Shown here: positions 10,293-32,000 of the stretch, one piece after another
Position numbering within the stretch: position 1 is the stretch's first letter
How the letters are laid out: the number at the start of each line of letters is the position of its first letter
Origin: Trichodesmium erythraeum IMS101
GTDB taxonomy: Bacteria; Cyanobacteriota; Cyanobacteriia; Cyanobacteriales; Microcoleaceae
Direction: 5' to 3'
Length of the DNA: 32,000 nucleotides
Assembly: GCF_000014265.1 (NCBI RefSeq)
Contig: NC_008312.1
Span: forward strand, 4,410,001-4,442,000
The notes under the pieces: model-generated
What the model was told of the DNA's origin: nothing
What the model saw: the letters and a program-made list of their open reading frames with translations, nothing else
Database searches by the model: none
Position numbers and translations under genes: made by a program

Positions 10293-10643
<351 letters not shown>

Positions 10644-13740: not shown

Positions 13741-14211
13741 TTATACTTCCCCTGTCAAAGCATCAGTAAATGGGTCTGGCAAAGCCTGTTGTATTTCCAT
13801 TTCTTCATTATCTTTATCATAATTTTTAACAGATAAATTATCACTATTTATATTTTTTTTTAAAATATGTCTACTATTTTTCCGCCGACTATAATCCTGT
13901 AATCTCAGCAATTCATCTTGATAAACAGAGATAATTCTGGTTAGAGACTCAGCTACTTCATCCCAATTTTCATCATCTACAATTTTTTCCGCAATACCTT
14001 GGAATAAATCCCCTGTTTGGTTTTTTTGAACATACTCTTTTAATAACTTCCCAGATTTTTGTAAAGCTGCCTGATATGCCTCTCCATCAGACCACCAAAG
14101 TCCAGGCTGGTTTAATAACCAAGTTAAAATATATTCTTGAGCGTGTTGTTCTTTTACCCAATTAGCAAGATACTTTAATTCATCCATATATTCCCTCTTT
14201 AATTTTATCAA
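13741..14211 (-). CDS. Hypothetical protein (acidic, no recognisable family)
   Basis: 156-aa ORF with an alternative start at Met9. I recognise no motif. Coding is judged only from ORF length in AT-rich DNA and protein-like composition. Confidence 0.45.
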   Translation of the reverse strand: MIKLKREYMDELKYLANWVKEQHAQEYILTWLLNQPGLWWSDGEAYQAALQKSGKLLKEYVQKNQTGDLFQGIAEKIVDDENWDEVAESLTRIISVYQDELLRLQDYSRRKNSRHILKKNINSDNLSVKNYDKDNEEMEIQQALPDPFTDALTGEV

Positions 14212-14748
14212 TTAAAAACTACTTTAGTTCAGTTTATATAGTTTTTTTTCAGGTGCCAAAACAATCTTCTAAACATAAAGGCCACAGTATGAGACTGAAC
14301 TAAGTTTGTAAACTTCTGACCTTGAGTGGGGTCTTTATGTTATCGTAATGTTTTTTCGGTTCTCAATTCAACAAATTGATAAATATTCAGTACTTACCAC
14401 TGCCCGTTAGGTAAATAATTAACAGACAAGTAGCTGCAAGATAAGAGTTTTATTATTAACCCCTTATAGATATTATGGCGGAATTAGATGCTTTATAAGC
14501 ATTTATAAGGATGTTTTACTTTAGCTTTTGCTCTTTCGCCTATTAGATTTGAGACTTTTCTAATTATAGGTTTTCAACCTACTTGATACTGATCAAAAAA
14601 GGGGGTTATAGGGAGTATTTTCAACCTTTTTTTCTTATTGCTTCTTCCCACTATAAATGAGAATACTCAAGAATTAAGAGTTGCTCAAGAGTGGGTATGA
14701 TGATGGAAAATAGCGATCGCTTTTCAAATCAACTTATTAAAATTAAAA

Positions 14749-15725: not shown

Positions 15726-15849
15726 CAAATAATACAAATTATCTGATAGTGAGAGCGATCGCAACTTTTATAATATCATACTTTAATTGAGCAAATTATA
15801 TTTCCTAAAACCCGAATTACTATTAATAACGGCGTTAGATGTCAGGTCT

Positions 15850-17274
15850 CTACTTCCTCAAAAAAACGACAATAATTAAACTACAAATTAACACTATCGG
15901 CACTACTGGCAGAAATCCTAAAGCCCAACTTTTAGGAATAATATTTACCTGAAAACCAATAACTGCTATTTCTCCAAAAATAATGGAAATTATACAACTC
16001 AAAGGTGAAATATTTTTCCCATATAAAGCGGCAATAACTGTGGGAAATAATACTGCTAAACCTGTAAAAGCTTGAGTAGCGATCGCTGCAATTGTTGCCG
16101 GAGGATTTGCTGCTAAAATCAAACCAATTATTGCTAAAATAACAATTAAAATTTTGCCCACAAAAGTTTGTTCTGTCAGGGTTGCTTGGGGGCGAATATA
16201 AACAATATAAATATCCCTAGTAATCATAGAACTTAATGCTAAAAGTTGAGAATCAAGGGTTGACATAAACGCTGCTAAAGCTCCTACCATTACTAATGAA
16301 GCCATGGTAGTTGAGGTATATTCAGCTAACATCATGGGAAAAATTTTATCTGCTTCTTTTCCAACTAAATCAGGAAAATTAATATGACCCCACATTCCAA
16401 TTAAAACAGGGCAAATAAACATTATGCAAGTAATTAATGGATATAAACTAGCAGAAAGTTTGAGGGAATTAGGATTTTTAGGAGTATAAAAGCGCATAAA
16501 CATTTGGGGGAACATCGGTACACTTAAACCCCAAAGCAACATATAACTAAACCATTTGTGGGGAGTGAAAAAATCATTGGTACCAGAACGAGAAAAAAGC
16601 TCTGGTTTGAGTTTATGAACAGTTTGATTAGCTTCAGTCAAGCCACCGAGACTTTGGGAAATAGTCACTACTGCAACTATCATTAAAATCAACATTAATA
16701 CTCCTTGTAAAACATCGGTTAAAGCTACACTTTTCATTCCCCCGATAAACACATATAAAACAATGATGAAAGTTAAAAAAGCTGCTCCCCAAAAATAGGG
16801 AATTTGCCCATTAGTTAAATTTTCAATCATATAACCCCCACCAATTGGTTGTAGGGTTAAATAAGGTATGGTAAAAATTACCATCACGGCTAAAAATATT
16901 AGTTTTAGTGGTTGACTTGGGAGGCAATTTGCGATTAATTCTGAGGGAGTAATTAAACCTTTTTCTTTACCTAAAAGCCAAACTTTATAACCGATAAAAT
17001 AAAATGTAATTCCGACAAGGGCCGTACCAAATCCTATCATCGGATAATAACTTATACCAATACGATAACCAGCACCAGAAAGTCCGAGAAAAGCAAAGGC
17101 ACTAAAGTTGGTAGCAATGAGGGTAAAAAATAGAACTATGGAACCGATTTTTCGCTCTGCTAGAAAGTAATCTTCTGGTGTATTTTTTTGGCTACGATAA
17201 CCAATAATTCCGATGACTAAAGTCAGGAGTAAATATGCACTAATAAATAAGTAGGGAATTAGGTTTTTGATCAT
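15850..17274 (-). CDS. Sodium:solute symporter family (SSF) transporter
   Basis: 474 aa, hydrophobic throughout with many TM-like segments. The overall pattern is typical of SSF (PanF/PutP-like) permeases. Its start lies 2 nt after the stop of the small membrane ORF upstream. Confidence 0.85.
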   Translation of the reverse strand: MIKNLIPYLFISAYLLLTLVIGIIGYRSQKNTPEDYFLAERKIGSIVLFFTLIATNFSAFAFLGLSGAGYRIGISYYPMIGFGTALVGITFYFIGYKVWLLGKEKGLITPSELIANCLPSQPLKLIFLAVMVIFTIPYLTLQPIGGGYMIENLTNGQIPYFWGAAFLTFIIVLYVFIGGMKSVALTDVLQGVLMLILMIVAVVTISQSLGGLTEANQTVHKLKPELFSRSGTNDFFTPHKWFSYMLLWGLSVPMFPQMFMRFYTPKNPNSLKLSASLYPLITCIMFICPVLIGMWGHINFPDLVGKEADKIFPMMLAEYTSTTMASLVMVGALAAFMSTLDSQLLALSSMITRDIYIVYIRPQATLTEQTFVGKILIVILAIIGLILAANPPATIAAIATQAFTGLAVLFPTVIAALYGKNISPLSCIISIIFGEIAVIGFQVNIIPKSWALGFLPVVPIVLICSLIIVVFLRK

Positions 17275-17276
17275 GA

Positions 17277-17504
17277 TTAATTTTCCTCTTCAGTTTCAGA
17301 TTTCCAGAAAGTTTGAGAGAAGATAAAAAGAGCACAGGCGAGGATAATTTGCAAAGTAATAAAGTAGAAAACCCAGGGTGGGAGATGGAGAAATGAAAAG
17401 GAAATTGTTTGTTTCCATGACCAGAAGTCTAGGGAAAGTAGGAAAATTATGGTGAAGCAAAAACACCAGAAATAGGGAGATTTGAAAATCTTGAAGTTGT
17501 TCAT
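17277..17504 (-). CDS. Small two-TM membrane protein, DUF3311-like partner of the SSF transporter
   Basis: 75 aa with two hydrophobic helices. It sits immediately upstream of, and is probably translationally coupled to, the symporter. Small DUF3311 proteins commonly occupy this position. Confidence 0.6.
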   Translation of the reverse strand: MNNFKIFKSPYFWCFCFTIIFLLSLDFWSWKQTISFSFLHLPPWVFYFITLQIILACALFIFSQTFWKSETEEEN

Positions 17505-17649
17505 ATCTGAAAAATTGTGATAAATTATTTGTTGGATATAGCCTAACTTTGAATGATTGAACCTCGATTAATTTTACTTCCTATAATTATGATATAGTAT
17601 AAAGAGAAATGCCTAAACCGACAGACATATTAAGGAGTTAATCAAATGA

Positions 17650-17907
17650 ATGAATGCTTACAAAAAATATGTAATAATTGATAATCCTCAGCAGTTAGTT
17701 TTATCAGATTTGCCATTTTCAGCAGGTCAAAAAGTGGAAATCATTATTTTAGCTGAAGAACAGAACGAAGTTGATAGTCAATTAGAGGAATTACGCCAAA
17801 AAATTGATGGCGCAACTGAGCAAATTTTAGCAGGGAATGTAACAGATGGCGAATTAGTTTTTGAGCAGTTACAAGCTAGATTAAAAAATGAATATGGATT
17901 AGAATAA
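17650..17907 (+). CDS. Putative type II antitoxin (orphaned)
   Basis: 85 aa and acidic. Its stop overlaps the ATG of a downstream stub (TAATG at 17905-17909), as in toxin-antitoxin operons. AAGGAG lies upstream at ~17632. Confidence 0.45.
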   Translation: MNAYKKYVIIDNPQQLVLSDLPFSAGQKVEIIILAEEQNEVDSQLEELRQKIDGATEQILAGNVTDGELVFEQLQARLKNEYGLE

Positions 17908-17978
17908 TGGTAAAGTACAAATTTTCTGAGGATGCAATATTTTTTCCTTCTATTATTTTCTGGCTTGGTCTGGATTAA
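17907..17978 (+). pseudogene. Truncated ParE/RelE-like toxin stub (23 codons)
   Basis: MVKYKFSEDAIFFPSIIFWLGLD-stop. The first ~10 residues resemble the ParE/RelE N-terminus (M.YK..FS..A); the rest is unrelated and terminates early. Confidence 0.35.
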
Positions 17979-18202
17979 TTATTATCTATTAGTTAGTTAA
18001 GTAAGTGCTAAAATTATTCCTCAAAACCTGCTTTAGCAAGACATTGGATATAAATTTTTGTGGCAATGTCTACTGCCAATAAATAAATTTCTTGGCTCGC
18101 AACAGAAGTCATGTTTAGATGACTAATTACCATTATTTGCTATAATACTCAATAAAAAATAATTGACAAAGCTCAATTTTATCTAGTTAAAAAAAAAGCT
18201 CA

Positions 18203-18339
18203 ATGCTTGCCAAACAACTTTATCATAATACTGTAAAAAAAGCAGGAAAATTTTTATAGCTGAAGCTGGTTTTCCCCTGTTTAGTTTTGATGTTTTGATG
18301 GAAAAAATTATTCAATGGAAACCACAGTTCGACTCTTAG
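18203..18339 (+). pseudogene. xisH: xisH remnant
   Basis: MLAKQLYHNTVKKA (18203-) matches the XisH N-terminus (M.AKD.YHN.VK.AL). After a stop or deletion, the tail LFSFDVLMEKIIQWK... resembles the XisH C-terminus. Most of the gene is missing. Confidence 0.5.
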
Positions 18340-18341
18340 AT

Positions 18342-18587
18342 GTAGAGGGGTGGCGCGACACTCTCTCAAAAATTTTGCCATACTATGCTGATATTTATTA
18401 CTGCTATGGTGATGTGAAAACTTTTGTAATTATTAGTCAAGAACACAACCATTTTATGTTACTTCATTAAGGATGGGAAAATCGTCGTCATGTTTATGGT
18501 ACTATTATTTATGCAGATGCTGAATTTAACTGTAGTTTGATTTTTTGTCAACTCAGGGAATATTTATTGAATGATACTAGATTTTAA
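18342..18587 (+). pseudogene. xisI: xisI remnant with in-frame stop
   Basis: The frame reads ...LSKILPYYADIYYCYGDVKTFVIISQEHNHFMLLH-stop(18468-18470)-GWENRRHVYGTIIYADA.... This matches the XisI core (D.E.DHY.L...GW.N..R.YG..IH.D). The C-terminal part diverges. Confidence 0.55.
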
Positions 18588-18759
18588 TTGGTGAGGCGAT
18601 CGCTTTCACCTGAGTCCTTACGAATTTATGGAAATTTCTTCACCTTATTTCTTTCTCTTTTAGAATGTTGTATAAAATGTCTCTACCTATTACCTAATAT
18701 TTGCTAGAATAAATTTTTAGATAGGGTTTTTATAACTTCTTTATTTCTTCTTTCATAAT

Positions 18760-19377
18760 ATGTCTTACAGTGAATTTACTCTCTCACAATTAGAATCTGA
18801 ATTTAATCTTATACTTCAGCAAAGAGTAGAATTATTCAAGTCAATAGAATCTGTAAATCCTAGTGCTTTACTGAAAGAAATTTTAGCTGAAAATATTCCT
18901 TTAGCATTAGAAATTGATACAGAAAAAGCACGTTCTGAATTGATTATTTCTCCAATTATAGTCGAACTTAGAAAATATTTTAATCGCCAAATTAGTTTAT
19001 TTTCTGGAACAGAATTTAATGTAGATAAATCTAAAGGATTAACAGGAAGATGTGACTTTTTAATTAGTTATTCTCCCAAACAATTAGAAATAACTGCCCC
19101 TGTGGTGACAATTGTTGAGGCAAAAAACGATAATATTAAATCTGGAATAGCCCAATGTATAGCAGAAATGCTCGCTGCTCAGTTATTTAACCAACAAAAA
19201 AACAATCAAATTTCTTGTATTTATGGAATTATTACAACTGGCAGTAATTGGAAGTTTTTAAGGCTGAGAAAAAACCAAGTTGATATTGAAGCATGGGAGC
19301 ATTTTATTGGTAATTTAGAGGATTTATTGGGGATTTTAATTTACATAATTAAAGAGGCAGTAGGGTTCAAAAATTAA
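18760..19377 (+). CDS. Hypothetical protein with a PD-(D/E)XK nuclease-type motif
   Basis: Intact 205-aa ORF. The motif GRCDFLIS...(x22)...IVEAKND fits the D...(D/E)xK restriction-endonuclease-fold signature. It resembles the small HSDR_N-like proteins common in cyanobacteria. Confidence 0.55.
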   Translation: MSYSEFTLSQLESEFNLILQQRVELFKSIESVNPSALLKEILAENIPLALEIDTEKARSELIISPIIVELRKYFNRQISLFSGTEFNVDKSKGLTGRCDFLISYSPKQLEITAPVVTIVEAKNDNIKSGIAQCIAEMLAAQLFNQQKNNQISCIYGIITTGSNWKFLRLRKNQVDIEAWEHFIGNLEDLLGILIYIIKEAVGFKN

Positions 19378-19544
19378 CAATTACCTATTCTGTTAATATA
19401 GCCAACTTTTTTTCAGGATAAACAGTAATTTTTTCAAGGAAAGTCAATATATTTATAGCTGAAATTATGAGGAGTATGAATATATTTGTTATAGAAATAT
19501 AAGCTACTAATTTTCTATAAAAATAGGGTATTTAGTTGATTACT

Positions 19545-20116
19545 TTAGAGGGATTTTGAGAGTAGTATCCTGATAGTTATGGTCGATTTTAATTAAGTAA
19601 CGGAGAGATTTTTCAACTGCAAACTACTGGAACCCATGAAAAAGTAGCTGGTTTTCTGGCTTTGGAACTAGGTGTGGAAATTAAACGCTTAAACTTGCCT
19701 TTTTTTACCCTATACAGGAATTAATTAAAGCTATATATTCCGATAAATATGCTTATATTTCTGAGGTGATGGTTTTGGATAAAAATGCTATGGCTCAGGA
19801 GTCAATGTGGAACAAGCGATCTACTATTACTAAAGGTATGAGTATTAAATTAGCGGAAGAAGTAGTAAGTACTAATTGGCAAAATAGTTATTTAATTAAG
19901 CTGACAGAATATGAAAAGTTAGGTATAAACGAATATTGGATAGTTGATTATTTAGGGTGGGGAGGTAGGCGCTATATTGGAGACTTGAAACAAGCAACTA
20001 TTTCGGTTTATAATTTAGTTGAAGCTGAATATGTGCTGAATTTATTTAGATATCAAAATGTGGTGGCTTCACCTACTTTTCCAGAACTTAATTTGATTGC
20101 TGAACAAATTTTTTAA
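19545..20116 (+). pseudogene. Uma2-family (DUF820) endonuclease, disrupted
   Basis: The C-terminal 116-aa ORF (19766-20116) carries the Uma2 blocks GINEYWIVDY and FPELNLIAEQIF. The N-terminal half is in another frame with stops: LEGF-stop, Y..F-stop-LSNGEIFQLQTTGTHEKVAGFLALELG...LYRN-stop. Confidence 0.65.
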
Positions 20117-20195
20117 GTTGGACAGTAGGAGTGTTATAAAAATAACGGGGAATAAGAAGTTAGCTAGTCTATGAAAACGGATTTAGTATTATCAT

Positions 20196-20250
20196 TTAGC
20201 TAAAGCAGAATATATGCTAAATTTATTTAGAGGTGAAGATCATGTTTTTT
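20196..20250 (+). pseudogene. Second short Uma2 C-terminal fragment
   Basis: LAKAEYMLNLFRGEDHV parallels LVEAEYVLNLFRYQNVV of the gene just upstream, with clear nucleotide similarity as well. Confidence 0.4.
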
Positions 20251-20304
20251 TACTAATAAGTTCCCTAAAGATTAGTATATTGAAAATGATTTACTAAAAG
20301 CTAT

Positions 20305-22779
20305 CTATATTGAATTTTCTAAAGATTTTAAGATCGACTTTAAAGTTTCTGAAAAAAATTCAGGAGAACATTCAGTTTGAACTCGCTTTATGGCATTTTT
20401 TCTCAGTTTATTCCATAAGCTTGAATCTTGATAAAGCTTGACACATTGTTGAGTAAAATTTATTGGATCATCGCTAACTAATAATTCTGTTTCATGTTTC
20501 CATCCTAATTGTTGAGCAATTAAGGATGTGGTAACAATAGGTAAACCGTAAGCTGCTGCTTCATGTACTTTATGAGGAATTCCTGCTGCATATCGAGTGG
20601 GAGCTAGAAATAATCTCGCCTGATTATAAAATGGTCTGATATCATCTACTTTTCCTAAAATTTTGATTGATGTATTGTTTAAACTATTTACTTTTTGTTG
20701 AATTTCTTCTACAGTATTATTCCCAATAATTATTAATTCAACATCTTGAGTTAGTTGTTTCTGAATTAGAGGAAATATTTCAGAAGTTAGCCATAAAATA
20801 GAATCAGCATTGGGAGATTCTTTTTCATAAACTGAACCCACAAATAAGAAATTTTGTCTTGACAAAAAAGATTGAGGTGTGGGATAAACAGACAGAGAAT
20901 GACCTAACAAGCTGACATTGGCATAGTTTTGCTCAATAAATTGTTGTTTTTCTGGGGAGGAAACGGTGATAATATGATGGCTATTTTTTGCCAGTTTAAT
21001 TTCTTCTTTAATGGCTGTTTGACGTTCTATTTCAGTAAAATAAGTTTGATTTAAACGTTTATATTCATAGTCTCGAATGCTAAAAATTGCTTCAGCATCA
21101 TAAATAATTTTTGCTGATTTGAGTAAATTTTCTTTAACTAAAATAGAGTTTAAATGTTTGATATTGTGAGGGCGACTAATAAAAACTAAATCATAGTATC
21201 CTTTGCGTTCTCTTAAAAAATCTTCTAACATAATTAACCCATATCCTCGCATAACTTCAACAGTTTGGGGAATATCGGCATAAACAGTTGACCAATCTTC
21301 GAGATGACGCAGATCCCCTGGGTAAAGGGTAACAAAATAGCCTAATTTAACAAGATTACAGAGAATAGAATGACTGCGAGTATAACCTGGACCTAACCAA
21401 GGATGAGGAATTCTATCATCAATAAATAATATGGGTTTTGGTCTTTCTCTAGCTTGAGTTCGAGCAAATATTAAATTCTTGAGTTCGGTAAGATATTGAG
21501 ATGAAAACCAGTCTTTGTGTTTTTGTTGAAATATCTTTTGATTTTTTTCCATCAGAGCGCTCGCCTGCTCGCTTGAACCTGTATGACTGGAACTAGCAAA
21601 CTCATAATGGAGAATATTTACATTGGGGTCGTAAATAATTTTTTTTCCTAATTTTTGCAGTCGCACACAATAGTCGGTTTCCTCAAAATAAGCTGGTTGA
21701 TAATCTTTATCAAACCCTTCTAATTGTAAAAACAAATCTCGTCGAGTTAAGAGAAAAGCTCCCGAACAATAATCAACAGCACGTTGAAATTGATATTCTG
21801 GTGCAGTGGGTAAGTTTCCACGTCCATATCCTAAGCAAGTTCCATCTTGCCAAATAATACTTCCTGCTTCTTGGAGAGTGCCATTGGGAAGGATTAGTTT
21901 TCCACCCACTGCACCAATATCATCTGAAGATTTAATAGTTTCGAGAGCGGAGGGGATACTATTACCTAAAACTTGAGCATCATTATTTAAAAATAGGAGA
22001 TAGTCTCCTTGGGCAATTTTGCTACCTTGGTTACATCCCAGAAGATAATGAAGATTTTGATGATTCAGGGTAATTTTGGCCCCGTTTATCTGTTGTAACA
22101 GTTGACGGGTGGTATCAGTGGAGTTGTTATCGACTAATATCAGTTCAAAAGATTGAAAGGGGTTTCTCAAAAGGGAATATAAGCAGCTTAAAGTTATTTC
22201 TGCTCGGTTATAGAGAATAATAATGATGCTAATTTCTGGATTTTCAACCAGGGGAAAGTTTAGTTGAGAGTTGGTATTGAGGAAGCTATCAAGAGTGATT
22301 TGGTTAAGAGTATCAAGAGTTTGTTTTGCTTGGTCTAGTTGGGGGGTTTGGGGGAGAGAAGGGTCTGGGGATCTAATGGTGGAATTTGGAGCACATTGAA
22401 AACTCTCTGCTAAGGGATGGTGGGGTTGCAGTTGGAGAACTTTTTGATAGGCGAGTTGAGCTTTGTCGAAGAATCCTTTTTTGGTCAACGCTTTTCCTAA
22501 GCCCAGGTAAACCTCGGCGTCATTGGGAGAAATTTCTAATGTTTGATAGTAGGTTTGTAGATCGTCTGGGTTTTGTTGAATTTTCTGTTTGTAATAGTTC
22601 AGCAGATTGGTTTTTTCTGCTTTTGCTTGTTGTTGTAGAGCATCCCCGATTTTTTTGTGTATTCCTGGGAGGTTGGGGTTGAGTTCGAGGGCGCGTTGGT
22701 AGGCAGCGATCGCTTCTGACCAGCTCTGATTCTTGTAGAAATCTTTGGCTTCTTCTAGGTAATTTTCACAAGTTTTCAT
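20305..22779 (-). CDS. Tri-modular TPR / GT2 / GT1(GT4)-like glycosyltransferase
   Basis: 824 aa. The N-terminal ~125 aa are TPR repeats (AIAAYQRALELNPN..., AEVYLGLGKAL). The GT-A/GT2 block has ISIIIILYNRAEITLSCLYSL, ELILVDNNSTD, YLLFLNNDA and YFEETDYCVR. The C-terminal GT-B block has ILFIDDRIPHPWLGPGYTRSH and RLFLAPTRYAAGIPHKVHEAAAYGLPIVTT. Confidence 0.85.
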   Translation of the reverse strand: MKTCENYLEEAKDFYKNQSWSEAIAAYQRALELNPNLPGIHKKIGDALQQQAKAEKTNLLNYYKQKIQQNPDDLQTYYQTLEISPNDAEVYLGLGKALTKKGFFDKAQLAYQKVLQLQPHHPLAESFQCAPNSTIRSPDPSLPQTPQLDQAKQTLDTLNQITLDSFLNTNSQLNFPLVENPEISIIIILYNRAEITLSCLYSLLRNPFQSFELILVDNNSTDTTRQLLQQINGAKITLNHQNLHYLLGCNQGSKIAQGDYLLFLNNDAQVLGNSIPSALETIKSSDDIGAVGGKLILPNGTLQEAGSIIWQDGTCLGYGRGNLPTAPEYQFQRAVDYCSGAFLLTRRDLFLQLEGFDKDYQPAYFEETDYCVRLQKLGKKIIYDPNVNILHYEFASSSHTGSSEQASALMEKNQKIFQQKHKDWFSSQYLTELKNLIFARTQARERPKPILFIDDRIPHPWLGPGYTRSHSILCNLVKLGYFVTLYPGDLRHLEDWSTVYADIPQTVEVMRGYGLIMLEDFLRERKGYYDLVFISRPHNIKHLNSILVKENLLKSAKIIYDAEAIFSIRDYEYKRLNQTYFTEIERQTAIKEEIKLAKNSHHIITVSSPEKQQFIEQNYANVSLLGHSLSVYPTPQSFLSRQNFLFVGSVYEKESPNADSILWLTSEIFPLIQKQLTQDVELIIIGNNTVEEIQQKVNSLNNTSIKILGKVDDIRPFYNQARLFLAPTRYAAGIPHKVHEAAAYGLPIVTTSLIAQQLGWKHETELLVSDDPINFTQQCVKLYQDSSLWNKLRKNAIKRVQTECSPEFFSETLKSILKSLENSI

Positions 22780-22948
22780 ATTCTTAAATTTTAGTCAAAA
22801 AGTTCCACATCCCTTTTATTACAAGGAGGAAATATAAGTGCGAATAAAAAAATAAAACTACTTCATAAACTAGGTTGATAGCTGTAAAAAAAAAGATAAT
22901 GCTTTCAAAACTTATTTTGTATCAAATATTAAGTGAATATCATCCCTA

Positions 22949-23884
22949 TTAGACAACCTCTTTCAAGACTTCTTGCCACTGTGCAATAAATTTATCAATA
23001 TGAAAAACATTTTTTGCCATATTACGAGAATTATGACCAATTCTTCTAGCTTCCTTTGGATTATAATAGAGAAACTTTAAATATTCATAAAGCTCAGACA
23101 TATTATTAGAAGCATAACCATTTTCACCATTAACAATGTACTCACTTTCACCATGAAAATTAGTCGTCACTAGAGCCATACCACATAACATTGCTTCAGT
23201 CCTAGCTCTTGGATTTGGTGATGCGTATGAGGGGCTAAATAGGATTGAGGAGGTAGAGAGAAAAGTCCTATATTTACTAAATGAGCTAAATTTGTAATCT
23301 CTTCCAATCCAGTCAACTTTTATGCCCGTTTTTTCTTCAAATTTAATCACTGCATTGTTGTTACGATATTCATTATGTATTTTCCCTGGAGGTTGATTAA
23401 CAACTATATTTCCACGACCATAATTACTTTGAGGCCATTCTTCAGGACTCATCCCATGACGAATAAATCGGGAATTTTCTATACCCCAAAGGTGATGAGC
23501 CGTGCTGCTATTACACACCATAAAATTATCGCCTATTAACTCTTTAATTTCTTCAGAAGTACAACCATCAACCATGTTACAGCCATGATTAATGATTATT
23601 TTTTTGCCTTTGTACATATTACGATAACGCAAAAATAGTAACCGTTTATCTAATTCATGCCAAGTCCACTGATCTACATGCAAAATCATTAAATCTGTTT
23701 CTACTGATTCTATATTATTGGCAAATTTTACATATGGTGGAATAGGTCTGTAATTTACATTCCAGCGACGATGAGTGTTCGTTAAAAATATCATATTGTG
23801 AGGTAATTTACACAACTCATAATCATGGGCAACATGCCAGGGATATTTAATAATATTCAACCTTGCTTTAAGCGATATTTGCAT
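22949..23884 (-). CDS. Glycosyltransferase, GT1/GT4-like
   Basis: 311 aa. The C-terminal block SPNPRARTEAMLCGMALVTTNFHGESEYIVNGENGY matches the retaining GT4 nucleotide-sugar binding region. The N-terminal half is atypical. Confidence 0.7.
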   Translation of the reverse strand: MQISLKARLNIIKYPWHVAHDYELCKLPHNMIFLTNTHRRWNVNYRPIPPYVKFANNIESVETDLMILHVDQWTWHELDKRLLFLRYRNMYKGKKIIINHGCNMVDGCTSEEIKELIGDNFMVCNSSTAHHLWGIENSRFIRHGMSPEEWPQSNYGRGNIVVNQPPGKIHNEYRNNNAVIKFEEKTGIKVDWIGRDYKFSSFSKYRTFLSTSSILFSPSYASPNPRARTEAMLCGMALVTTNFHGESEYIVNGENGYASNNMSELYEYLKFLYYNPKEARRIGHNSRNMAKNVFHIDKFIAQWQEVLKEVV

Positions 23885-23939
23885 CTTGTTATGATATATT
23901 ATTTGTTTTTTATTATTTGTCTAAAAATCACTCTAAAAA

Positions 23940-24800
23940 CTAAATTTTTCTAGCCAATATTCTAATAGCAGAGGCAACACGATTTTGATTCATTGCCTCA
24001 TCTATTGTGTCAAATATATTTCTATATTTAACTTCGTACTTTGATAGTATGTTTTGTAATAAATAGCTAATAAATATAGCCAAAAGTGGTTCTGCCTTAA
24101 CTTTAGCATATATACCCGAACTTCTAATTATTTTTAATAATTCTGTATCACCTTCATGGTATGAATAATACCCGCTATCTATGATTTCAAATCCAAGATT
24201 GCCTAATCTATCAATCATTCTTTTTCGAGAAAAACCTAAATGGTAGTGCTTATGTTTATCCCACTGCCTTTTTCTTTCGTTTACTAAATAATCCGAAGAT
24301 TCTTGTTCATCCTTTTCTGAATAATGTGGAGTATCTACATAAATATATCCTCCAGGCATAACACAAGAACTTAAGTTGACAAGCGCACTTTGATAATCTT
24401 CTATGTGTTCCAAAGTTTGTATTGAAAAAGTATAATCAAACTTTGATTGCAAATTGCTCCACTCATAATGATCTAAATCTACGTCTACAAACTCAATATT
24501 GTTATTCTCAAGTATATAATTCCAATTATATTTAGGTATATATTTTGAAGATTTATCGAAACAAAACATCTGCATATTAGGAAATGCTTGACTAAGAAAT
24601 ACTTCATGTGAGCAACTTCCAGAGCCAAAACTTCCAGCTTTTCTTGGTTGGATATTATATTTAGTTATATAATCAAGCATTGGCACATAAGATAATAGTA
24701 ACCTGACCAAAGTTTCAGTAAAGAAACAAGACATATGGTTTGATGATTGTTCTATACATTTTTTGAATACTTCTATATTATTTCTCTTAATTTTTTGCAT
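23940..24800 (-). CDS. Class I SAM-dependent methyltransferase
   Basis: 286 aa. Motif-I-like SFGSGSCSHEV, acidic FCFD, a TLEHIEDY block and a VMPGGYIYVDTP post-motif. Confidence 0.7.
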   Translation of the reverse strand: MQKIKRNNIEVFKKCIEQSSNHMSCFFTETLVRLLLSYVPMLDYITKYNIQPRKAGSFGSGSCSHEVFLSQAFPNMQMFCFDKSSKYIPKYNWNYILENNNIEFVDVDLDHYEWSNLQSKFDYTFSIQTLEHIEDYQSALVNLSSCVMPGGYIYVDTPHYSEKDEQESSDYLVNERKRQWDKHKHYHLGFSRKRMIDRLGNLGFEIIDSGYYSYHEGDTELLKIIRSSGIYAKVKAEPLLAIFISYLLQNILSKYEVKYRNIFDTIDEAMNQNRVASAIRILARKI

Positions 24801-24854
24801 AATTTGATATTTTTTTTATTTAATAAATTATTAAAAACTCTTACAAGGTAATGT

Positions 24855-25520
24855 TTAAATCTTCTTCACCACCATACCAAACAATTTGAAATATAACTGG
24901 TAGGTAGAATTGCGAGCTAAATCACTAATTTTCCAAGGCCAAGCACGGTAAACATTAATATACCAAGTGTCTAAAGGAAAAACCTGAGACAGCAGATTAA
25001 ACATCTTTTCTGGAGTCATTGCTGTTTTATGATGATGTGGATTAGTAGATTTTGGTTTGTAGTAAGGAAAATGATCTGGAATATACCTACATTCTTTAAC
25101 TTCTGGCAAGGGTTTTAGGGTTTCATCCCAATGCTCAAAATTGGGAGTTGTGCAAGCAAACATTACATTGGTAGCTGCTTTAATTTTTTCCAGAAAGATT
25201 AATAAATCATTTTCTGGTATATGCTCCAAAACTTCCAATGCCAAAGTTAGATCGGCTATCTTCAGAGGTGATTGTATAATATCTGAGTATGTATTAATAT
25301 TCCTTGCAAGTAACTTACTTGATATATTATTGTCAAGTTCTATGCAAATATAATCTTTAGCATTTTTCGCCTTATTGTATTTTTTAAACCAATCATGTAA
25401 CGGGTTATTGCCAGGTCCAAACTCAATACAAGAAGAAAAGGATAAATTTTTCTCTTTAGCAGTTTGGTCGATTATTTTAATCAGGTTATATTCTGATGTT
25501 TGCATAATATATTGTTTCAT
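24855..25520 (-). CDS. Class I SAM-dependent methyltransferase (Methyltransf_11/23-like)
   Basis: 221 aa. Motif I IEFGPGNNP, ICIELD, and LALEVLEHIPENDLLIFLEKIK followed by FACTTPN. Confidence 0.65.
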   Translation of the reverse strand: MKQYIMQTSEYNLIKIIDQTAKEKNLSFSSCIEFGPGNNPLHDWFKKYNKAKNAKDYICIELDNNISSKLLARNINTYSDIIQSPLKIADLTLALEVLEHIPENDLLIFLEKIKAATNVMFACTTPNFEHWDETLKPLPEVKECRYIPDHFPYYKPKSTNPHHHKTAMTPEKMFNLLSQVFPLDTWYINVYRAWPWKISDLARNSTYQLYFKLFGMVVKKI

Positions 25521-25623
25521 TTGTCTCTCTTATTCTTTTTATTTTTTTTTGTTGTAGATAACCCTGTGATTCCACTATAAAATCTCTAATTTTCCACACC
25601 GTTAGCAGGATTAGACAAAATTT

Positions 25624-28600
25624 TCATCTTGATTTCTTTTTGAGTCTGTTAAGTTCATCATTTAATATATCTATTTTTTCTAGTGCAGATGTGAAAGATA
25701 TGGGTAAAACATCAGGAAAATTGGTAACTATATCCTGAATAATATCATGCTTGATTCGCCTCCACTGATTTGTGATATCAGGCATCTGTGGCGGAATTTT
25801 AGGAGGAAATATTTCCAACCATTTTACATATTGCCTAGATAAATTACTATCTATATCACTGTTTCCTCTCAATACTACAGGAATATTTACATAACAACAG
25901 TTATTTTTCTGTTGATTATTTAATGCCAAAAGTGTAATGTTCCAACCCCAATAGTTAAGTTGTGTTTGAATTAGAGGAATATAAGGTTTTACCCAACTAC
26001 GCTTAATTAGCATAACATCAGGTGTATTCGGATTGATCATGAATTTAATCCCATCAAATATTGAATTTGATTGAATATCTGGCAAGCACCCATAAGATTG
26101 AACCTTTAGTAGTAAAACGGGTTCTGCATCTGATTTACTTAAATGTCGATCTAACTCTTCATAGATACCTTGAGTTAAAATACAATTTCCAGAAACTAAT
26201 AAAATCCAATCTTGGTTTGCTTCTATTATAATTTGTTGAAAATATTTGAAAATTTCTAAGTAATCATTTTCAGGGAATAAATACTGAAATCCGTGCTTTT
26301 CTATTTTTAGTTCTTGCTCATAAGGAGTAGTAGCTACAATATATTGACTACCAAAATCTGACCAGTTGACCTCTGACTCCTCTATGCAAGTAGTAAAAGT
26401 TTTTGTCACAGAGTAGTCATAAATCAAAACTGCAACTTGGGATAAAAAGTTTTTTTGATAAGTTTTAGTAAAATTTCTTTTTACTTGAGTTGGTATCCAG
26501 CGTTTTCGACTACCAAGCACATTATTAAACCAGTTTTTTGTAATCTTTTGAGTTGAATATATCTCTAATGCACGTTGACGTGCAACCAATATTTCTTCTT
26601 GTACCTGGGCAAAATTTGTTTTCAGATAAGTCAGCTTTTCATTCCAATTACCATCGTAGTTCACTAAAAAATGGTTACCCAAATTAAATTCTCTAGCTAC
26701 TCTCCTATGTTCTGGTGTTGCAGTTGCTAATACTGGTACACCTAAAGCAATAGCTTTAATCATGCGATTGGCATTTTTAGCTAGGTTCCATTCTGTAGGT
26801 TCAAGAGGAAATATCAGAAGATCGAACTCCGTCAAAGTCTGATCGACAGTATTGATCTCAAATTCAATATCCCCCCCTTTAGTAATGGTTGTAATTTTTT
26901 CCTCAATGTTTACATTTTTAATCTGTAAAATCCCCTCAGGAGCGCCAAACCAGGCAATATTTTTCAGCTCAGGAGTTGGTTCTCTAACTATATCATCTGT
27001 GTTGATATCGACTGGGTTCTCTAAAACAAATACATTAGGATGATATTTATTGGCAAAATCAGCTAATAATTGACTACCAACTGTAACTACATCAACTGAA
27101 TTCATAAATGCTACTAACTCTTCTTGTGTTCCTTGATTAGGTAAAACATAATTATCATCAAAATCGTAAACAACCACTTTGTTTTCATGTTTGAGTTCTC
27201 TAAGTTGCATTTTTGATCGATCATTAAGTTGATCGAAAAGCCGAAGTTTCTGAAATACATAAACATCACTCTTGTCACTATAACCAATAGTGACTAGATG
27301 ACCTGCTTTGCGAAGGCAATCTACTAGTTTCCAAGTCCTAAGTCTAGCGCTAGCTTTAGAGTAATTACCAAAAGGAAAAAAGGAAAAATTAATTGGTTTA
27401 AAGCCACTACTTGCATCTATAACTATTAATTCAGAAAATGCTAACCACAAATTTCCAGCACTGGTTGTCGGTAGGTTAATATAAAACCCTATATGTACTT
27501 CTTCAGGTAAATTCTTGACTACTTTGTTGAGGTTAATTGATATATTTGTGGTTGACCAGCCGAAATTACTATGGACTTTAGTAGAGAGTTGATAAATTTT
27601 ATTAGTCAATTTATCGTCAGCAAAAATAGCTATGACTATTTCCGATCTATTAGTATTTTGCAAACAAAGTTGTACAGAGCTTGTAATAATGGTATCTTCA
27701 AATATTTTAATACCTCTAACAATTTGACGTAAATAAGATCTGGGATTAGTTTGTTTAACATCTTGAGTTTTAATATAAAAAAAACTATCATTATCAACCA
27801 GTTCTTTGTTTATTTCAGGTATCTCTTTATTACGAACAAATTGAGTTGCAACTTTCCACTCAGGTCTTATTACTAATTCCCAGTCTCTAGGAGCAATATT
27901 ACCCTCACAAATGTTAAGTTCTTCTAAATTAAGGAATTGTGGATTAGATAAAAGATTTTTTTTTGTTGTAGAAAAAACCGTTTTTGTTTGGGTGTTGTTT
28001 TGAGTATCAAACTGTAGTGAATCTTGTTTGTTTTTTTCTACTTCCTGAGTTTGAAATTGAGAGTTTAATTTAGCTGCCTGACGAAATGCATGGAACGCTT
28101 GTTCCAATCCTCCTACCTGCATCGTTTTTTTTAAGTTGTGGCGAGACCAGACGAAAATATCGGGATTTTTATCTATAGCTTTTTGATATGCTAAGATTGC
28201 CTTTTCTGATTGACCTTTTGCAATCCAAGCATGACCTAATCCCAAATATAATTCAGCATCATCTGGCTTAATTTCTAAAGCCTTTTCATAACTTTTCACA
28301 TCTGTCGGATCGTTCCTGATCCCTTGCCGATAATAACTTAATGCTTGCTCTAATTTCCCTTGAACCTGCTGATGCAATGCTTGATTTAATTTTTCCTCTA
28401 CTTCAGGAGAAAAATCAGGCTGAATCTCCATGAATCGACGATAAGCATTCACTGCTTCATCCCATTTTTCTAAAAGGAAACAAAGCTCTGCTAAGTTATA
28501 ATAAGACCAAGCAAAATTTGGTTCTAGATAGATGGCTTTTTGATAATATTTTATTGCTTCATTCAACTTCCCTAACCTGACTAAAACATCCCCTAAATTA

Positions 28601-31600
28601 TTATAAGACCAAGAAAGATCGGGCTTTAATTCTATCGATTCATTATAAGCAGCAATTGCGTCTTCTAACTTTCCTATTTCTTGCAATAAATTACCTAATT
28701 TATGATGTACTTCCCATGATTCCGGTTCCATTTCAACGGCTTTTCTATAAACCTTTATTGCCTTTTCTTTCTCTCCTTTTTCTACCAAAGTATCACCTTG
28801 TAAATGGTAATATTCTGCAAAATTTGCATCTACTTTAATTGTGTTATTAACAGCAATTTTTTCTAAATCTGACTTACTTTGTGTAGCTAATATTTTCCCA
28901 AACTGCCCCGCCTTTGTTAACTTCTTATTAGCTTCTTGCTGCTGTTTAGCATTAGCTATTTTTTCCTGAAGCTGATTTTCCGCATCTGCTAAATACTGTT
29001 TTATATCTTTCCTGTCAGGATCTAATTTAATTGCTTTTTGGTAAGCAGCGATCGCCCCTTCCCAATCTTCCAACTTCACCAACACATCTGCCAACTTATA
29101 ATAATTCCAAGGAAAATCAGGATTCAACTCAATAGCCTGATGATAAACACTCTTGGCTTCTGGCCACTTCTCTAACTTAACTAAAACATCCCCCAAATTA
29201 TTATAAGACCAACAAAAATCAGGATTTAACTCAATAGCCCGACTATAAACACCAGTCGCCTCCGACCACTTCTCTAACCTAACTAAAACATCCCCCAAAT
29301 TATTATAAGACCAACAAAAATCAGGATTCAATTCAATAGATTTCCTATAAGCATTAGCAGCCGTTTCTAACTCCTCTGTTTCCTGGAACAAACTACCTAA
29401 TTTATGATGCACTTCCCATAATTGAGGCCGAATTTCAATGGCCTTTCTGTAAACCTTTATAGCCTCTTCTTTCTCCCCCTTGTTTCTTAAAGCATCACCC
29501 AAATACTGATAAGCATCAACAAAATCTGGGTCTATTGCAATTGCTTTGTAGTAAGCATTTATTGCTTGGGAAAGTTCCCCTACCTTGGCCAAGATGTCAG
29601 CCAATTTAACATAAGACACAGAAGAGTTGGGATTTAATTTTATGGCATGACCATAAGCCGAAATGGCCTCGGAAAATTTTTCTTGTTTAATTAAAATATC
29701 CCCTAAGTTATGATGAGGTTCCCAGAGATTTGGTTGAATTTCAATTAATTTTTCATAGAGAATTACTACTTTTTCTAATTGGTTTTGGTTGACTAAAATA
29801 TTAGCTAAAGAGTAGTAAGCCTCTGTCAAGTATGGCTCAATTTCAATAGCTTTACGGTAATAAGAAATAGCCTCTTCTAATTTTCCTGGTAAAAGAGCTA
29901 ATATATTTCCCATCTCATAATTAGCACCTGAGTCGTTAGGATTTAGTTTCAGTGCTTGAGCATAACAATTAATAGCATTATCTAATTGATTTTTCTGTTG
30001 AAAAGCTTTCCCCATTATCTGATAAGCTTCTGAGTTTTTTTCAACTTTAATTACTGAATAGCAGATAGCGATCGCCTCAGAAAACAATCCTTCTAAATAA
30101 TAAGTCTTAGCTTGTTTTAATAGTTCTTTAACTTCTGCTTTTTGAGAATAATTAATCTGATTTGTCACTATCTGATTCAACTGCAGTAATTCACCACTTT
30201 TCCGTTCAATTTCTGCTGCACTTAGTTGATGACCATTCTGATATTTATCTTCTAATTTTGCTGAGATATTAAAATTCACATCACCCTTTAAACTCTTCTG
30301 ATTTTGATTTTTATTTTCCCAAACTTTATCTTTAATTTCTGCTGAATTTAGTTGCTCACCATTCTCGTATTCAGCTTCTAACTTAGCTGAGATATCAGAA
30401 TTCATATCAACCTTTAAACTCTTCTGATTTTGATTTTTATTTTCCCCAACTTTATCTTTAATTTTTGCTGAATTTAGTTGATAACCATTCTCGTATTCAG
30501 CTTCTAACTTGGCTGAGATATCAGAATTCATATCAACCTTTAAAGTATTCTGATTTTGATTTTTATCTGCCCAAATTTCCTTAGCTTTATGGTAATAAAT
30601 AACTGCTTCATCCCATCTTCCGAGACATTTTAATCCCAAACTAAGATTATAGTAAACTGTACCCAAATTAGGATTTAACTCTATAGAATTTTGATAACAA
30701 GATACTGCCTGAGCAATTTTTCCTTTCTCATACAATTTATTTCCTAAATTAAAATGGTCATTAGCAGTTACTTTTTTAGGTTCTAAAGAGTAAGCTTGGT
30801 ACCAAAAATCTAGAACTCCTAATGTTTCACCTAACTCAGTCAAAACCATCGCTAATTTGTAATAATTCTCAGCCACCTTTAGTTTTATTTCTAACGCTTT
30901 TTCATAACAATAAATCACCAAATTCAAAATTTTATACTCAACATATAAATTGCCTAATACTATATAAATTAAACCATAACTTTGCTGAATTTCCAGAGCT
31001 GTTTTGTAACTGCTCTCAGCTTGTTTTATTTCCCCAATTTTTTTCTGAGAATCTCCGATAATTATGTAAGCTGCTGCTACATCTATTTTAAGAGAAATCG
31101 CTTGCTGACATTGAGAAATTGCTTTTTCATAAAATCCCTCCTCATAATATTTTTGAGCTTCCTGAATATAAACATTAGGAATATTTCTCACACCATTAGA
31201 TGTCATATCTTTTAAAAGAAACGTTGAATTTATTTGTTTTACCTCATTGACTTTGGAAATTTCTTTCAGTTTTAAAGTGGAGTGAATAATCTGATTATTA
31301 TTAGCTTTTTTTGGACTATTCATAACGGTTTTTTCTCCCTCTATATTCCCATAAACATTAGTGACATCTGCTTCGATGATTAGAGGTTTATTGGGAGCTA
31401 AAGTTTTCGTAATTTCCTTATAGTTTGTAACCCTTTTATCCTGACTATTTTCTAACACAGATAAAGATGATTCTAGATAATTAACAGAGTCCGATAAATC
31501 ACTTTTTAAATCAAAAGTTGATATCACTCTACTAACTCCTTTACTAACAACTCTTTGAAAATTTTCAGGTTTCTGAATAATATGAATTGTATCATCAGCC

Positions 31601-32000
31601 CGAACCTGCTGAATTATTCCCTGACTATTTTGGTGATTTTCTCCTATTAGTAAATTGAGAGAATTTTCGAGATTTTGCCAATAATTAGGAAACACTTTTG
31701 TAGTAGGTTTCTTTGTTCCTTGCAGTTTTAATGCTTCCCCTAAACTTTCATAAGCTCCTAATAAATTAGGATTTAATTCTATCGCCCGACAATAGCACGA
31801 TATTGCTTGAGAAATTACCTTTTGTTGCAGCAGACTATTTCCTAATATTAAATGTTCTTCTGCTGTAGCTTTTCCAGGCTCTAAACTGTAGGCTTGATAC
31901 AAACAGTTATCACCTTTTGTCTTCTTACCAACTTTTCTCCAAGCTATAGCTAGTTGACGGTAAGCATCAGCATAATTTGGCTGGATAACCAAAGATTTTT
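25624..32000 (-). CDS. Giant TPR-array protein with C-terminal beta-rich, GT-B-like and GT-A-like modules (5' end outside the window)
   Basis: The frame is open to the window edge: the track 'M' at 31992 is a TTG, and the preceding codons read KS. TPR blocks lie at ~31990-31700, 31140-30570 and 30130-28100. A non-TPR spacer lies at 31700-31140. In-frame 42-aa repeats lie at 30564-30187. A beta-rich region lies at ~27950-27420. The GT-B-like module (~27400-26560) includes NANRMIKAIALGVPVLATATPE. The GT-A-like module (~26470-25750) includes VAVLIYDYS and DWILLVSGNCIL. The tail is coiled-coil. Confidence 0.85.
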   Translation of the reverse strand, partial: KSLVIQPNYADAYRQLAIAWRKVGKKTKGDNCLYQAYSLEPGKATAEEHLILGNSLLQQKVISQAISCYCRAIELNPNLLGAYESLGEALKLQGTKKPTTKVFPNYWQNLENSLNLLIGENHQNSQGIIQQVRADDTIHIIQKPENFQRVVSKGVSRVISTFDLKSDLSDSVNYLESSLSVLENSQDKRVTNYKEITKTLAPNKPLIIEADVTNVYGNIEGEKTVMNSPKKANNNQIIHSTLKLKEISKVNEVKQINSTFLLKDMTSNGVRNIPNVYIQEAQKYYEEGFYEKAISQCQQAISLKIDVAAAYIIIGDSQKKIGEIKQAESSYKTALEIQQSYGLIYIVLGNLYVEYKILNLVIYCYEKALEIKLKVAENYYKLAMVLTELGETLGVLDFWYQAYSLEPKKVTANDHFNLGNKLYEKGKIAQAVSCYQNSIELNPNLGTVYYNLSLGLKCLGRWDEAVIYYHKAKEIWADKNQNQNTLKVDMNSDISAKLEAEYENGYQLNSAKIKDKVGENKNQNQKSLKVDMNSDISAKLEAEYENGEQLNSAEIKDKVWENKNQNQKSLKGDVNFNISAKLEDKYQNGHQLSAAEIERKSGELLQLNQIVTNQINYSQKAEVKELLKQAKTYYLEGLFSEAIAICYSVIKVEKNSEAYQIMGKAFQQKNQLDNAINCYAQALKLNPNDSGANYEMGNILALLPGKLEEAISYYRKAIEIEPYLTEAYYSLANILVNQNQLEKVVILYEKLIEIQPNLWEPHHNLGDILIKQEKFSEAISAYGHAIKLNPNSSVSYVKLADILAKVGELSQAINAYYKAIAIDPDFVDAYQYLGDALRNKGEKEEAIKVYRKAIEIRPQLWEVHHKLGSLFQETEELETAANAYRKSIELNPDFCWSYNNLGDVLVRLEKWSEATGVYSRAIELNPDFCWSYNNLGDVLVKLEKWPEAKSVYHQAIELNPDFPWNYYKLADVLVKLEDWEGAIAAYQKAIKLDPDRKDIKQYLADAENQLQEKIANAKQQQEANKKLTKAGQFGKILATQSKSDLEKIAVNNTIKVDANFAEYYHLQGDTLVEKGEKEKAIKVYRKAVEMEPESWEVHHKLGNLLQEIGKLEDAIAAYNESIELKPDLSWSYNNLGDVLVRLGKLNEAIKYYQKAIYLEPNFAWSYYNLAELCFLLEKWDEAVNAYRRFMEIQPDFSPEVEEKLNQALHQQVQGKLEQALSYYRQGIRNDPTDVKSYEKALEIKPDDAELYLGLGHAWIAKGQSEKAILAYQKAIDKNPDIFVWSRHNLKKTMQVGGLEQAFHAFRQAAKLNSQFQTQEVEKNKQDSLQFDTQNNTQTKTVFSTTKKNLLSNPQFLNLEELNICEGNIAPRDWELVIRPEWKVATQFVRNKEIPEINKELVDNDSFFYIKTQDVKQTNPRSYLRQIVRGIKIFEDTIITSSVQLCLQNTNRSEIVIAIFADDKLTNKIYQLSTKVHSNFGWSTTNISINLNKVVKNLPEEVHIGFYINLPTTSAGNLWLAFSELIVIDASSGFKPINFSFFPFGNYSKASARLRTWKLVDCLRKAGHLVTIGYSDKSDVYVFQKLRLFDQLNDRSKMQLRELKHENKVVVYDFDDNYVLPNQGTQEELVAFMNSVDVVTVGSQLLADFANKYHPNVFVLENPVDINTDDIVREPTPELKNIAWFGAPEGILQIKNVNIEEKITTITKGGDIEFEINTVDQTLTEFDLLIFPLEPTEWNLAKNANRMIKAIALGVPVLATATPEHRRVAREFNLGNHFLVNYDGNWNEKLTYLKTNFAQVQEEILVARQRALEIYSTQKITKNWFNNVLGSRKRWIPTQVKRNFTKTYQKNFLSQVAVLIYDYSVTKTFTTCIEESEVNWSDFGSQYIVATTPYEQELKIEKHGFQYLFPENDYLEIFKYFQQIIIEANQDWILLVSGNCILTQGIYEELDRHLSKSDAEPVLLLKVQSYGCLPDIQSNSIFDGIKFMINPNTPDVMLIKRSWVKPYIPLIQTQLNYWGWNITLLALNNQQKNNCCYVNIPVVLRGNSDIDSNLSRQYVKWLEIFPPKIPPQMPDITNQWRRIKHDIIQDIVTNFPDVLPISFTSALEKIDILNDELNRLKKKSR
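29163..29328 (-). repeat. Near-identical adjacent 102-bp TPR units (recent internal duplication)
   Basis: 29163-29226 and 29265-29328 differ at about 2 of ~65 positions, and a 46-nt block is identical. Both encode AIELNPDFCWSYNNLGDVLV(R/K)LEKW. Confidence 0.85.
30187..30564 (-). repeat. Three in-frame 126-bp (42-aa) tandem repeats inside the giant TPR gene
   Basis: The marker AAACT/AAAGT recurs at 30290, 30416 and 30542, an exact 126-bp period. The encoded unit is KNQNQ.(S/T)LK.D.N..ISAKLE..Y.NG.QL..A.I..K..E. Confidence 0.9.

Follow-up and report, generated by a model that had tools for sequence, protein, structure and literature searches.

The group-2 capsule polymerases Cps3D, Cps7D and Cps1B of Actinobacillus pleuropneumoniae are soluble proteins in which tetratricopeptide repeats (TPRs) are joined to two transferase domains (GT-B with a second GT-B or with a GT-A), and the TPRs of the Cps3D/Cps7D-type polymerases are needed to form oligomers, to elongate the primer and for processivity. 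Multi-domain polymerases with fused TPRs are thus well established in capsule synthesis dependent on ATP-binding cassette (ABC) transporters (PMC11666461, PMC5974469). In the ABC-dependent O-antigen assembly of Escherichia coli O9a (WbdA/WbdD) and of Klebsiella O4 and O7 (PMC11231755), glycosyltransferase (GT) modules are shared out among soluble proteins with one or several domains, which assemble into a complex, and methylation acts as chain modification or terminator. The Klebsiella O4 terminator ORF7-O4 (GT137) contains a TPR-like bundle, and such loci include novel GT folds without Pfam assignment (PMC11231755). Two other systems are also similar in part, namely the OGT/SPINDLY protein glycosyltransferases (GT41) with a cyanobacterial Ogt, and the mycobacterial methylmannose polysaccharide cluster (ManT, MeT1, MeT3 and MmpH). 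Here we describe the genes Tery_2849-Tery_2853 of the filamentous cyanobacterium Trichodesmium erythraeum IMS101, which lie in a stretch of 32,000 nucleotides (contig NC_008312.1, positions 4,410,001 to 4,442,000, hereafter the window). With a probability of about one half, they encode a cytoplasmic assembly line, scaffolded by TPRs, that makes a methylated surface glycan for export by machinery encoded elsewhere.

The five genes are co-directional open reading frames (ORFs) on the minus strand, from 20305 to beyond 31992 of the window, separated from 20305 upward by 169, 55, 54 and 103 nt, exactly as an earlier reading of the sequence alone had it. In a published gene table Tery_2849 occupies 4,430,305-4,432,779, and beyond the window Tery_2854/2855 and then a GT2 gene, Tery_2856 (window-equivalent 37185-38186), are listed (PMC2211374). 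A literature search for Tery_2849-2854 returned one listing in a 2007 gene table as the sole mention. The genes are as follows.

20305..22779, minus strand: Tery_2849, 824 aa, TPR at aa 8-125, GT2 domain of GT-A fold at aa ~181-394 and a GT4-type GT-B
22949..23884, minus strand: Tery_2850, 311 aa (100 % identity to the 311-aa ORF), compact complete GT-B, probably of GT4 (retaining) type
23940..24800, minus strand: Tery_2851, 286 aa, class I methyltransferase dependent on S-adenosylmethionine (SAM)
24855..25520, minus strand: Tery_2852, 221 aa, small methyltransferase-like protein, member of the core triad described below
25624..32000, minus strand: Tery_2853, giant protein of >2,124 aa with its 5' end beyond the window, TPR/linker region of ~1,300 aa and a C-terminal X-module of 824 aa

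The total predicted enzyme content is five GT-like domains and two methyltransferases, and hydrophobic segments compatible with transmembrane (TM) helices are present in none of the five proteins. The domain calls of the sequence-only reading are supported by Pfam for the TPR-GT2-GT1/4 protein, the GT1/4 enzyme and Tery_2851, and marginally for Tery_2852. Tery_2849 matches TPR (1.9e-15), GT2 and GT1/4 families, with the C-terminal half of its GT-B at aa 642-805. Tery_2850 matches Glycos_transf_1 at 3.9e-11 in its C-terminal half only; its AlphaFold 2 (AF2) model (pLDDT 95.6) is a whole compact GT-B, the best Foldseek matches of which in the Protein Data Bank (PDB) are all GT4 enzymes (BshA, BA1558, HepE, MshA, PglH and ManT). 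It retains the second glutamate (E230) of the GT4 E-x7-E motif and has serine at the first position, and a sequence search of solved structures gave nothing informative for it. Tery_2851 matches five Pfam methyltransferase families (E 1.7e-9 to 9e-6). Tery_2852 reaches Methyltransf_23 at the borderline (27.3 bits against a cut-off of 27); its motif I reads IEFGPGNNP, and its orthologues show the canonical SAM motif I LDVGCGxRP and an acidic residue after strand 2. Neither methyltransferase has a solved relative at E<=1 in the sequence search of structures. Among the NCBIfam equivalogs, no operon protein reaches any curated cut-off, the nearest models being stp1 (TIGR03087, PEP-CTERM/XrtA-associated; 86.4 bits against 316.65), stp2 (TIGR03088; 28-31 against 409) and the hormogonium polysaccharide GT models HpsN (58.5 against 425), HpsE (30.6 against 300) and HpsP (20.1 against 550).

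The C-terminal 824 aa of Tery_2853, the previously undescribed X-module, match no Pfam or NCBIfam family (best E=0.04), and the X-module profile matches none of the sequences of solved structures in the PDB. The giant had been called a TPR/GT protein; its TPRs are found by Pfam, and its GT part emerges only from an AlphaFold model built on 47 homologues (pLDDT 84.7, pTM 0.83) with Foldseek comparison. The predicted architecture is a beta-sandwich, an atypical GT-B, a GT-A-like domain and terminal helices.

27415..27882, minus strand: beta-sandwich, module aa 73-228, like carbohydrate-binding modules (CBM) of families CBM4/CBM22 (Foldseek matches 2y6k and 3k4z, both CBM4)
26509..27390, minus strand: atypical GT-B, module aa 237-530 (AF2 model and Foldseek)
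25864..26436, minus strand: GT-A-like Rossmann domain, module aa 555-745, weakly conserved (AF2 model and Foldseek)
25630..25776, minus strand: C-terminal helices, module aa 775-823 (AF2 model)

Foldseek places the X GT-B next to compact GT4-like enzymes (GlgM, PimA, SenB, Gtf3 and GtfC). Its invariant residues are QK283-284, D312/D314/D315 (in YDFDDNY), H353, N361, D364 and WFG383-385, and at the site of the GT4 E-x7-E motif it has K441-N442-x-N444-R445 with K448. Profile-profile comparison found no relation between the X-module and the Tery_2850 family, so the X GT-B did not arise recently as a GT4 paralogue. A DxD motif is missing from the GT-A-like domain (LLVSGNCIL instead), and Foldseek pairs this domain with WrtF, TarS and EXT at TM-scores of 0.4-0.5; a WrtF-like metal-independent fucosyltransferase is no more than a lead, at a TM-score of about 0.5 and a root-mean-square deviation of 9-10 A. 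In the model the CBM-like domain stands ahead of the GT-B, which would fit binding of a glycan acceptor. Foldseek against viral structures gave generic multi-GT proteins of giant viruses and phages, an unspecific result. The X-module family is rare (434 members at E<=1e-3 and 58 at E<=1e-30 among 1.84 billion representatives), and its members are nearly all unnamed stand-alone proteins of 600-800 aa. The cassette probably contains an unclassified glycosyltransferase family. As the sequence-only reading had proposed, the catalytic parts of the operon with Pfam matches are GT2/GT4-like, and none matches GT41.

The gene set and its order (giant, methyltransferase, methyltransferase, GT4, TPR-GT2-GT4) recur in Microcoleus sp. 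CSU_2_2 (contig L007) and in an Oscillatoriaceae Prado104 metagenome-assembled genome (MAG; contigs L008/L026), that is, in three genera at 40-79 % amino acid identity. As the earlier reading had it, the locus is an intact and uncharacterised glycosylation/methylation operon; it is also conserved. Identities of the L007/L008 proteins to those of Trichodesmium are the following.

X-module: 47-50 %
Small methyltransferase (Tery_2852): 40-42 %
Methyltransferase (Tery_2851): 44-45 %
GT4 (Tery_2850): 78-79 %
TPR-GT2-GT4 (Tery_2849): 62-64 %

In the relatives the giant gene is directly preceded by a gene for a TPR-GT61-TPR protein of ~1,900 aa (L007 91-5829, L008 60-5735, L026 3996-9830). Their giants (L007 5912-12445, L008 5906-12421) contain an internal GT2 domain at about aa 480-700; Tery_2853 lacks it and has TPRs and repeat-expanded linkers there instead, and it is collinear with them only in the C-terminal 820 aa. 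The six-gene operon of L026 forms an island, with genes for a short-chain dehydrogenase/reductase and unknown proteins upstream after a 0.9-kb gap, and small ORFs, a HEAT protein and an SLH-OprB porin downstream.

In unrelated bacteria, the X-module and a homologue of Tery_2850 (50-64 %) are encoded as neighbours, and neither is fused to a TPR array there. Tery_2850 is the most conserved component of the cassette (78-79 % in Microcoleus/Oscillatoriaceae and 50-64 % in the non-cyanobacterial loci, L010 and L024 among them). The core triad of X-module, Tery_2850-type GT4 and Tery_2852-type methyltransferase is complete in three loci, L024, L010 and L025. The contexts are listed below.

L024 (68 % guanine + cytosine, GC): triad, 5374-17590, with KpsC, KpsS, a KpsU-like gene, KdsA, a sulfotransferase-like gene and a GT2-GT2 protein
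L010 (Brevundimonas MAG): triad, 6757-20425, with rmlB/D/A, three sulfotransferases, a gene of the PAPS-reductase family (possibly cysD or cysH), four more GTs and a separate TPR protein
L025 (41 % GC): triad, with two methyltransferases
L011: X + GT4 pair, with an ABC-transporter ATPase, GT4s, a methyltransferase, and PMT_2 and GtrA proteins
L012: X + GT4 pair, no related neighbours
L021: GT4 and a stand-alone homologue of the GT-A-like domain, with a GT2-GT4 fusion, GDP-sugar enzymes and GT10 fucosyltransferases
L022: GT4, with GT2, a coiled-coil protein and lipid A genes
L023: GT4, with a Methyltransf_21 gene and GT2

The combination of KpsC, KpsS, KpsU and KdsA is a hallmark of ABC-transporter-dependent group-2 capsules, and by its gene content L024 is a group-2-capsule-type locus. 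From this set and similar neighbours it follows that outside the cyanobacteria the cassette keeps the company of surface-polysaccharide genes. Sulfation apparently accompanies or replaces methylation in the non-cyanobacterial loci, and the gene set of L010 suggests that the core enzymes make a glycan there that is sulfated and contains rhamnose. In L011, a protein of 1,978 aa without any Pfam domain is encoded at 530-6466, ~3.5 kb upstream of the X/GT4 pair, with a GT4 gene and ABC-transporter genes in between; this protein may act at the cell surface or as a further enzyme.

The ORF of the giant protein has no stop upstream of 31992 and is open at the end of the window, and fragments from related Trichodesmium indicate at least about 100-150 further N-terminal TPR residues. 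TPR families score in its TPR and linker part with E-values down to 1e-128 (Pfam), and two near-identical tandem repeats lie within this part.

28099..32000, minus strand: TPR and linker region of Tery_2853, at least 15 Pfam-scored TPR stretches
29072..29339, minus strand: tandem repeat of 102 nt x 2.6, near-identical, duplicated TPR units (ELNPDFCWSYNNLGDVLV...)
30208..30575, minus strand: tandem repeat of 126 nt x 2.9, near-identical, low-complexity linker (NKNQNQ..LKVDMNSDISAKLEAEYENG...)

All metagenome contigs with the Trichodesmium operon (L001-L006 and L013-L017) end within the giant gene at the 102-nt repeat. Because of this, full-length Tery_2853 is almost never assembled and protein databases hold mostly fragments. 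A homologue search for the N-terminal part gave fragments of at most 410 aa on contigs of <2 kb, and a metagenome scan with the N-terminal 300 aa gave unrelated TPR proteins only. Identical operon proteins were recovered from dozens of ocean metagenome samples. On a metagenome contig of a closely related strain (L020 1-1367, 98 % identical) the reading frame of the giant is broken within the N-terminal TPRs; this break reflects either a disruption peculiar to that strain or a sequencing error.

Taken together, the soluble nature of the enzymes, the synteny of the operon, the occurrence of the triad in polysaccharide loci, the precedent of TPR polymerases and the scattering of cyanobacterial polysaccharide genes favour the following picture. 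The operon of Oscillatoriales-type filamentous cyanobacteria would encode a membrane-free, TPR-scaffolded multi-enzyme system that builds a glycan at the cytoplasmic side. Its catalytic core would be the X-module, the GT4 Tery_2850 and the small methyltransferase Tery_2852; Tery_2849 (GT2 + GT4) would add further linkages and Tery_2851 a second methylation. We infer that the product may be a polysaccharide of the cell surface, similar to an O-antigen, a capsule or a sheath. It would be finished in the cytoplasm on a lipid primer and leave the cell through an ABC-type system encoded elsewhere, with methyl groups that decorate or cap the chain. The long TPR arrays would hold the enzymes together and provide primer recognition and processivity, as in Cps3D/Cps7D, rather than select protein substrates. 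Like these polymerases, the giant combines TPRs with GT-B and GT-A-like domains and Tery_2849 combines TPRs with GT2 and GT4, both without TM segments, and the distant homologue in L024 adjoins kpsC/kpsS/kpsU/kdsA. Unlike them, the operon proteins have no match to the TagF-like phosphotransferase family (Glyphos_transf), the X GT-B has WFG383-385 instead of WHG/QHG where its C-terminal half begins, the top 50 Foldseek matches include neither TagF nor Cps3D and no sequence similarity to solved structures is seen; the TPR arrays have 3-5 times the length and extend over several proteins, the operon includes methyltransferases, and no kps (kpsMT, kpsCS, kpsFU) or ABC-transporter genes occur in the window or at L026. 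The distribution of modules over soluble single- and multi-domain proteins and the presence of methyltransferases recall the O-antigen systems. Unlike WbdD, however, Tery_2851 and Tery_2852 are single-domain proteins without coiled-coil ruler or kinase match, they have no detectable relation to solved structures, WbdD included, and wzm/wzt are not adjacent. On the whole, an uncharacterised system containing a rare GT module without family assignment fits the logic of known multi-module, TPR-assisted polymerases and modifying enzymes.

Several observations weigh against this picture. No gene for an exporter, an initiating transferase or sugar-nucleotide synthesis is found in the window, as had been noted from the sequence, nor is any found within 4-10 kb of the operon in L026. 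Transporter or kps genes occur in only two of the eight non-cyanobacterial contexts. The TPR arrays (at least ~1,300 aa in the giant and ~1,900 aa in the GT61 partner of the relatives) far exceed those of characterised polymerases. The glutamates that canonically bind the nucleotide are missing from the X GT-B, which makes even the class of its donor uncertain. In addition, the distribution of KpsC/KpsS is confined in cyanobacteria (PMC4594306). On the other hand, cyanobacteria have their genes for extracellular polysaccharide (EPS) and O-antigen dispersed over the genome, alone or in small clusters (PMC4594306), and for this reason missing exporters are weak evidence.

The sequence-only reading had taken the position of the TPRs ahead of the catalytic domains as a sign of protein glycosylation in the manner of OGT/SPINDLY. 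This argument is not supported, because the same arrangement is found in Cps3D/Cps7D/Cps1B and so is not specific to OGT. The resemblance to OGT/SPINDLY and the cyanobacterial Ogt (an N-terminal TPR array followed by a GT-B in a soluble cytoplasmic enzyme) stops at the catalytic parts, which are GT2, GT1/4 or without family and nowhere Glyco_transf_41, and several GT domains are accompanied by methyltransferases around a core that is TPR-free in polysaccharide loci. A cytoplasmic, TPR-guided glycosylation and methylation of proteins, in which a methylated oligosaccharide would be built straight on a pilin, an S-layer protein, an oscillin-like fibril or another abundant structural protein without lipid carrier or exporter, is nevertheless an alternative to be considered, if an unlikely one. 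It would explain why all enzymes are soluble and why no lipid-carrier or export gene lies in the window or around the L026 operon. The structural neighbours of the X GT-B include the compact GT-B protein glycosyltransferases Gtf3, GtfC and AaNGT, and the TPR arrays are far longer than in known polymerases. In the relatives there are three TPR-bearing proteins per operon, one of them with a domain of GT61, a family to which the protein O-GlcNAc transferase EOGT also belongs. Furthermore, pilin glycosylation in Synechococcus elongatus reportedly depends on a glycosyltransferase homologue with TPRs, Ogt (bioRxiv 10.1101/2021.07.06.449578). Against these points stand the lack of a GT41 domain in the five proteins, the generic GT4/GT-B nature of the structural neighbours (10-14 % identity), the occurrence of the triad without TPRs in other phyla within capsule/O-antigen-type loci, and the absence of a candidate target gene conserved beside the operon; five GT-like domains and a CBM-like domain suggest a polymer, not a short protein-linked glycan. 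A bolder combination, less likely still, is that the X-module founds a new GT family, with its invariant K-N-x-N-R...K patch in place of E-x7-E, and that in Oscillatoriales it was recruited through TPR arrays (at least ~1,300 aa, three proteins) into a lipid-carrier-independent machine that builds a methylated glycan straight on one specific protein, for instance a surface fibril, S-layer or pilus protein tied to filament gliding or colony formation. If true, bacteria would have an equivalent of OGT-type TPR-guided glycosylation that does without GT41.

A product that stays inside the cell, such as a methylated glycan (an oligosaccharide or a polysaccharide) or the head group of a glycolipid, by analogy with the mycobacterial methylmannose polysaccharide cluster, appears improbable. 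As in that cluster, a GT4 and two SAM methyltransferases occur together without an exporter, all enzymes are soluble, and ManT of M. hassiacum (7qsg) ranks 17th among the Foldseek matches of Tery_2850; this similarity, however, is no better than that to a dozen other GT4 enzymes. Homology of the methyltransferases to the mycobacterial ones is undetectable (neither matches any solved structure at E<=1, these included), a hydrolase partner is missing from the operon, and a GT2, the X-module and TPR parts are present in excess of the mycobacterial set. The homologous cassettes sit in export-linked loci, and we know of no methylmannose-type intracellular polymer reported in cyanobacteria, which also speaks against such a product. 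That the Trichodesmium copy is a partly degenerate relic, which may no longer make the ancestral product, is very improbable. The loss of the internal GT2 of the L007/L008 giants, with TPRs and tandem repeats in its place, and the related strain with a frame break in the N-terminal region would suit it; five uninterrupted ORFs along 11.7 kb of an AT-rich genome, identical proteins in dozens of ocean metagenome samples and the retention of the family-invariant catalytic residues would not. An assembly line for an exported, methylated surface glycan is the reading we prefer.

Much of the neighbouring 20 kb had been described as decayed, and the intactness of the operon amid decay had been offered as an argument for selection. 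This description is wrong. The first 20 kb contain intact genes for an esterase, mini-RNase III, a zinc alcohol dehydrogenase (ADH), mnmG, glnB, an acetolactate-synthase-type thiamine pyrophosphate (TPP) enzyme (ilvB-like) and a symporter of the SSF family with a small partner ORF, and these intact housekeeping genes are separated by long AT-rich spacers. The coding fraction is 42-49 % in the first 20.3 kb and 96.7 % in the operon. Low coding density with long spacers is the normal state of the Trichodesmium genome, and the argument from surrounding decay fails because this state was misread. The 474-aa sodium:solute symporter at 15850-17504 (minus strand) is directly preceded by a 75-aa ORF whose stop adjoins the symporter ATG, and this ORF is probably a small membrane partner of the symporter, not part of a split gene. 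The 2.4 kb between mnmG and glnB (7900-10290) have a GC content of 0.24-0.25 and a longest ORF of at most 58 aa. Just downstream of the operon, a 116-aa ORF (19766-20116, plus strand) covers only positions 81-169 of the 172-position profile of Uma2, a putative restriction endonuclease; it is a truncated remnant, and the sole clear gene remnant seen. Rfam and tRNA scans of the whole window gave zero matches. A promoter/terminator scan gave counts equal to the shuffled expectation, so it is uninformative on the boundaries of the operon.

Trichodesmium provides a large share of the new nitrogen of the tropical ocean, and its surface chemistry governs colony formation, the capture of dust and iron and the community of epibionts. 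To our knowledge, almost nothing is known about the making of its envelope glycans. Where about half of the genome in the region is non-coding, the operon stands out as one of a small number of fully compact loci. The analysis also reveals a rare cassette, made up of the X-module, a highly conserved GT4 and a small methyltransferase, that recurs in capsule/O-antigen-type loci of unrelated bacteria. Elucidation of its product would add a new polymerase module to the toolbox of ABC-transporter-type glycans and would probe the role of very long TPR arrays in glycan synthesis.

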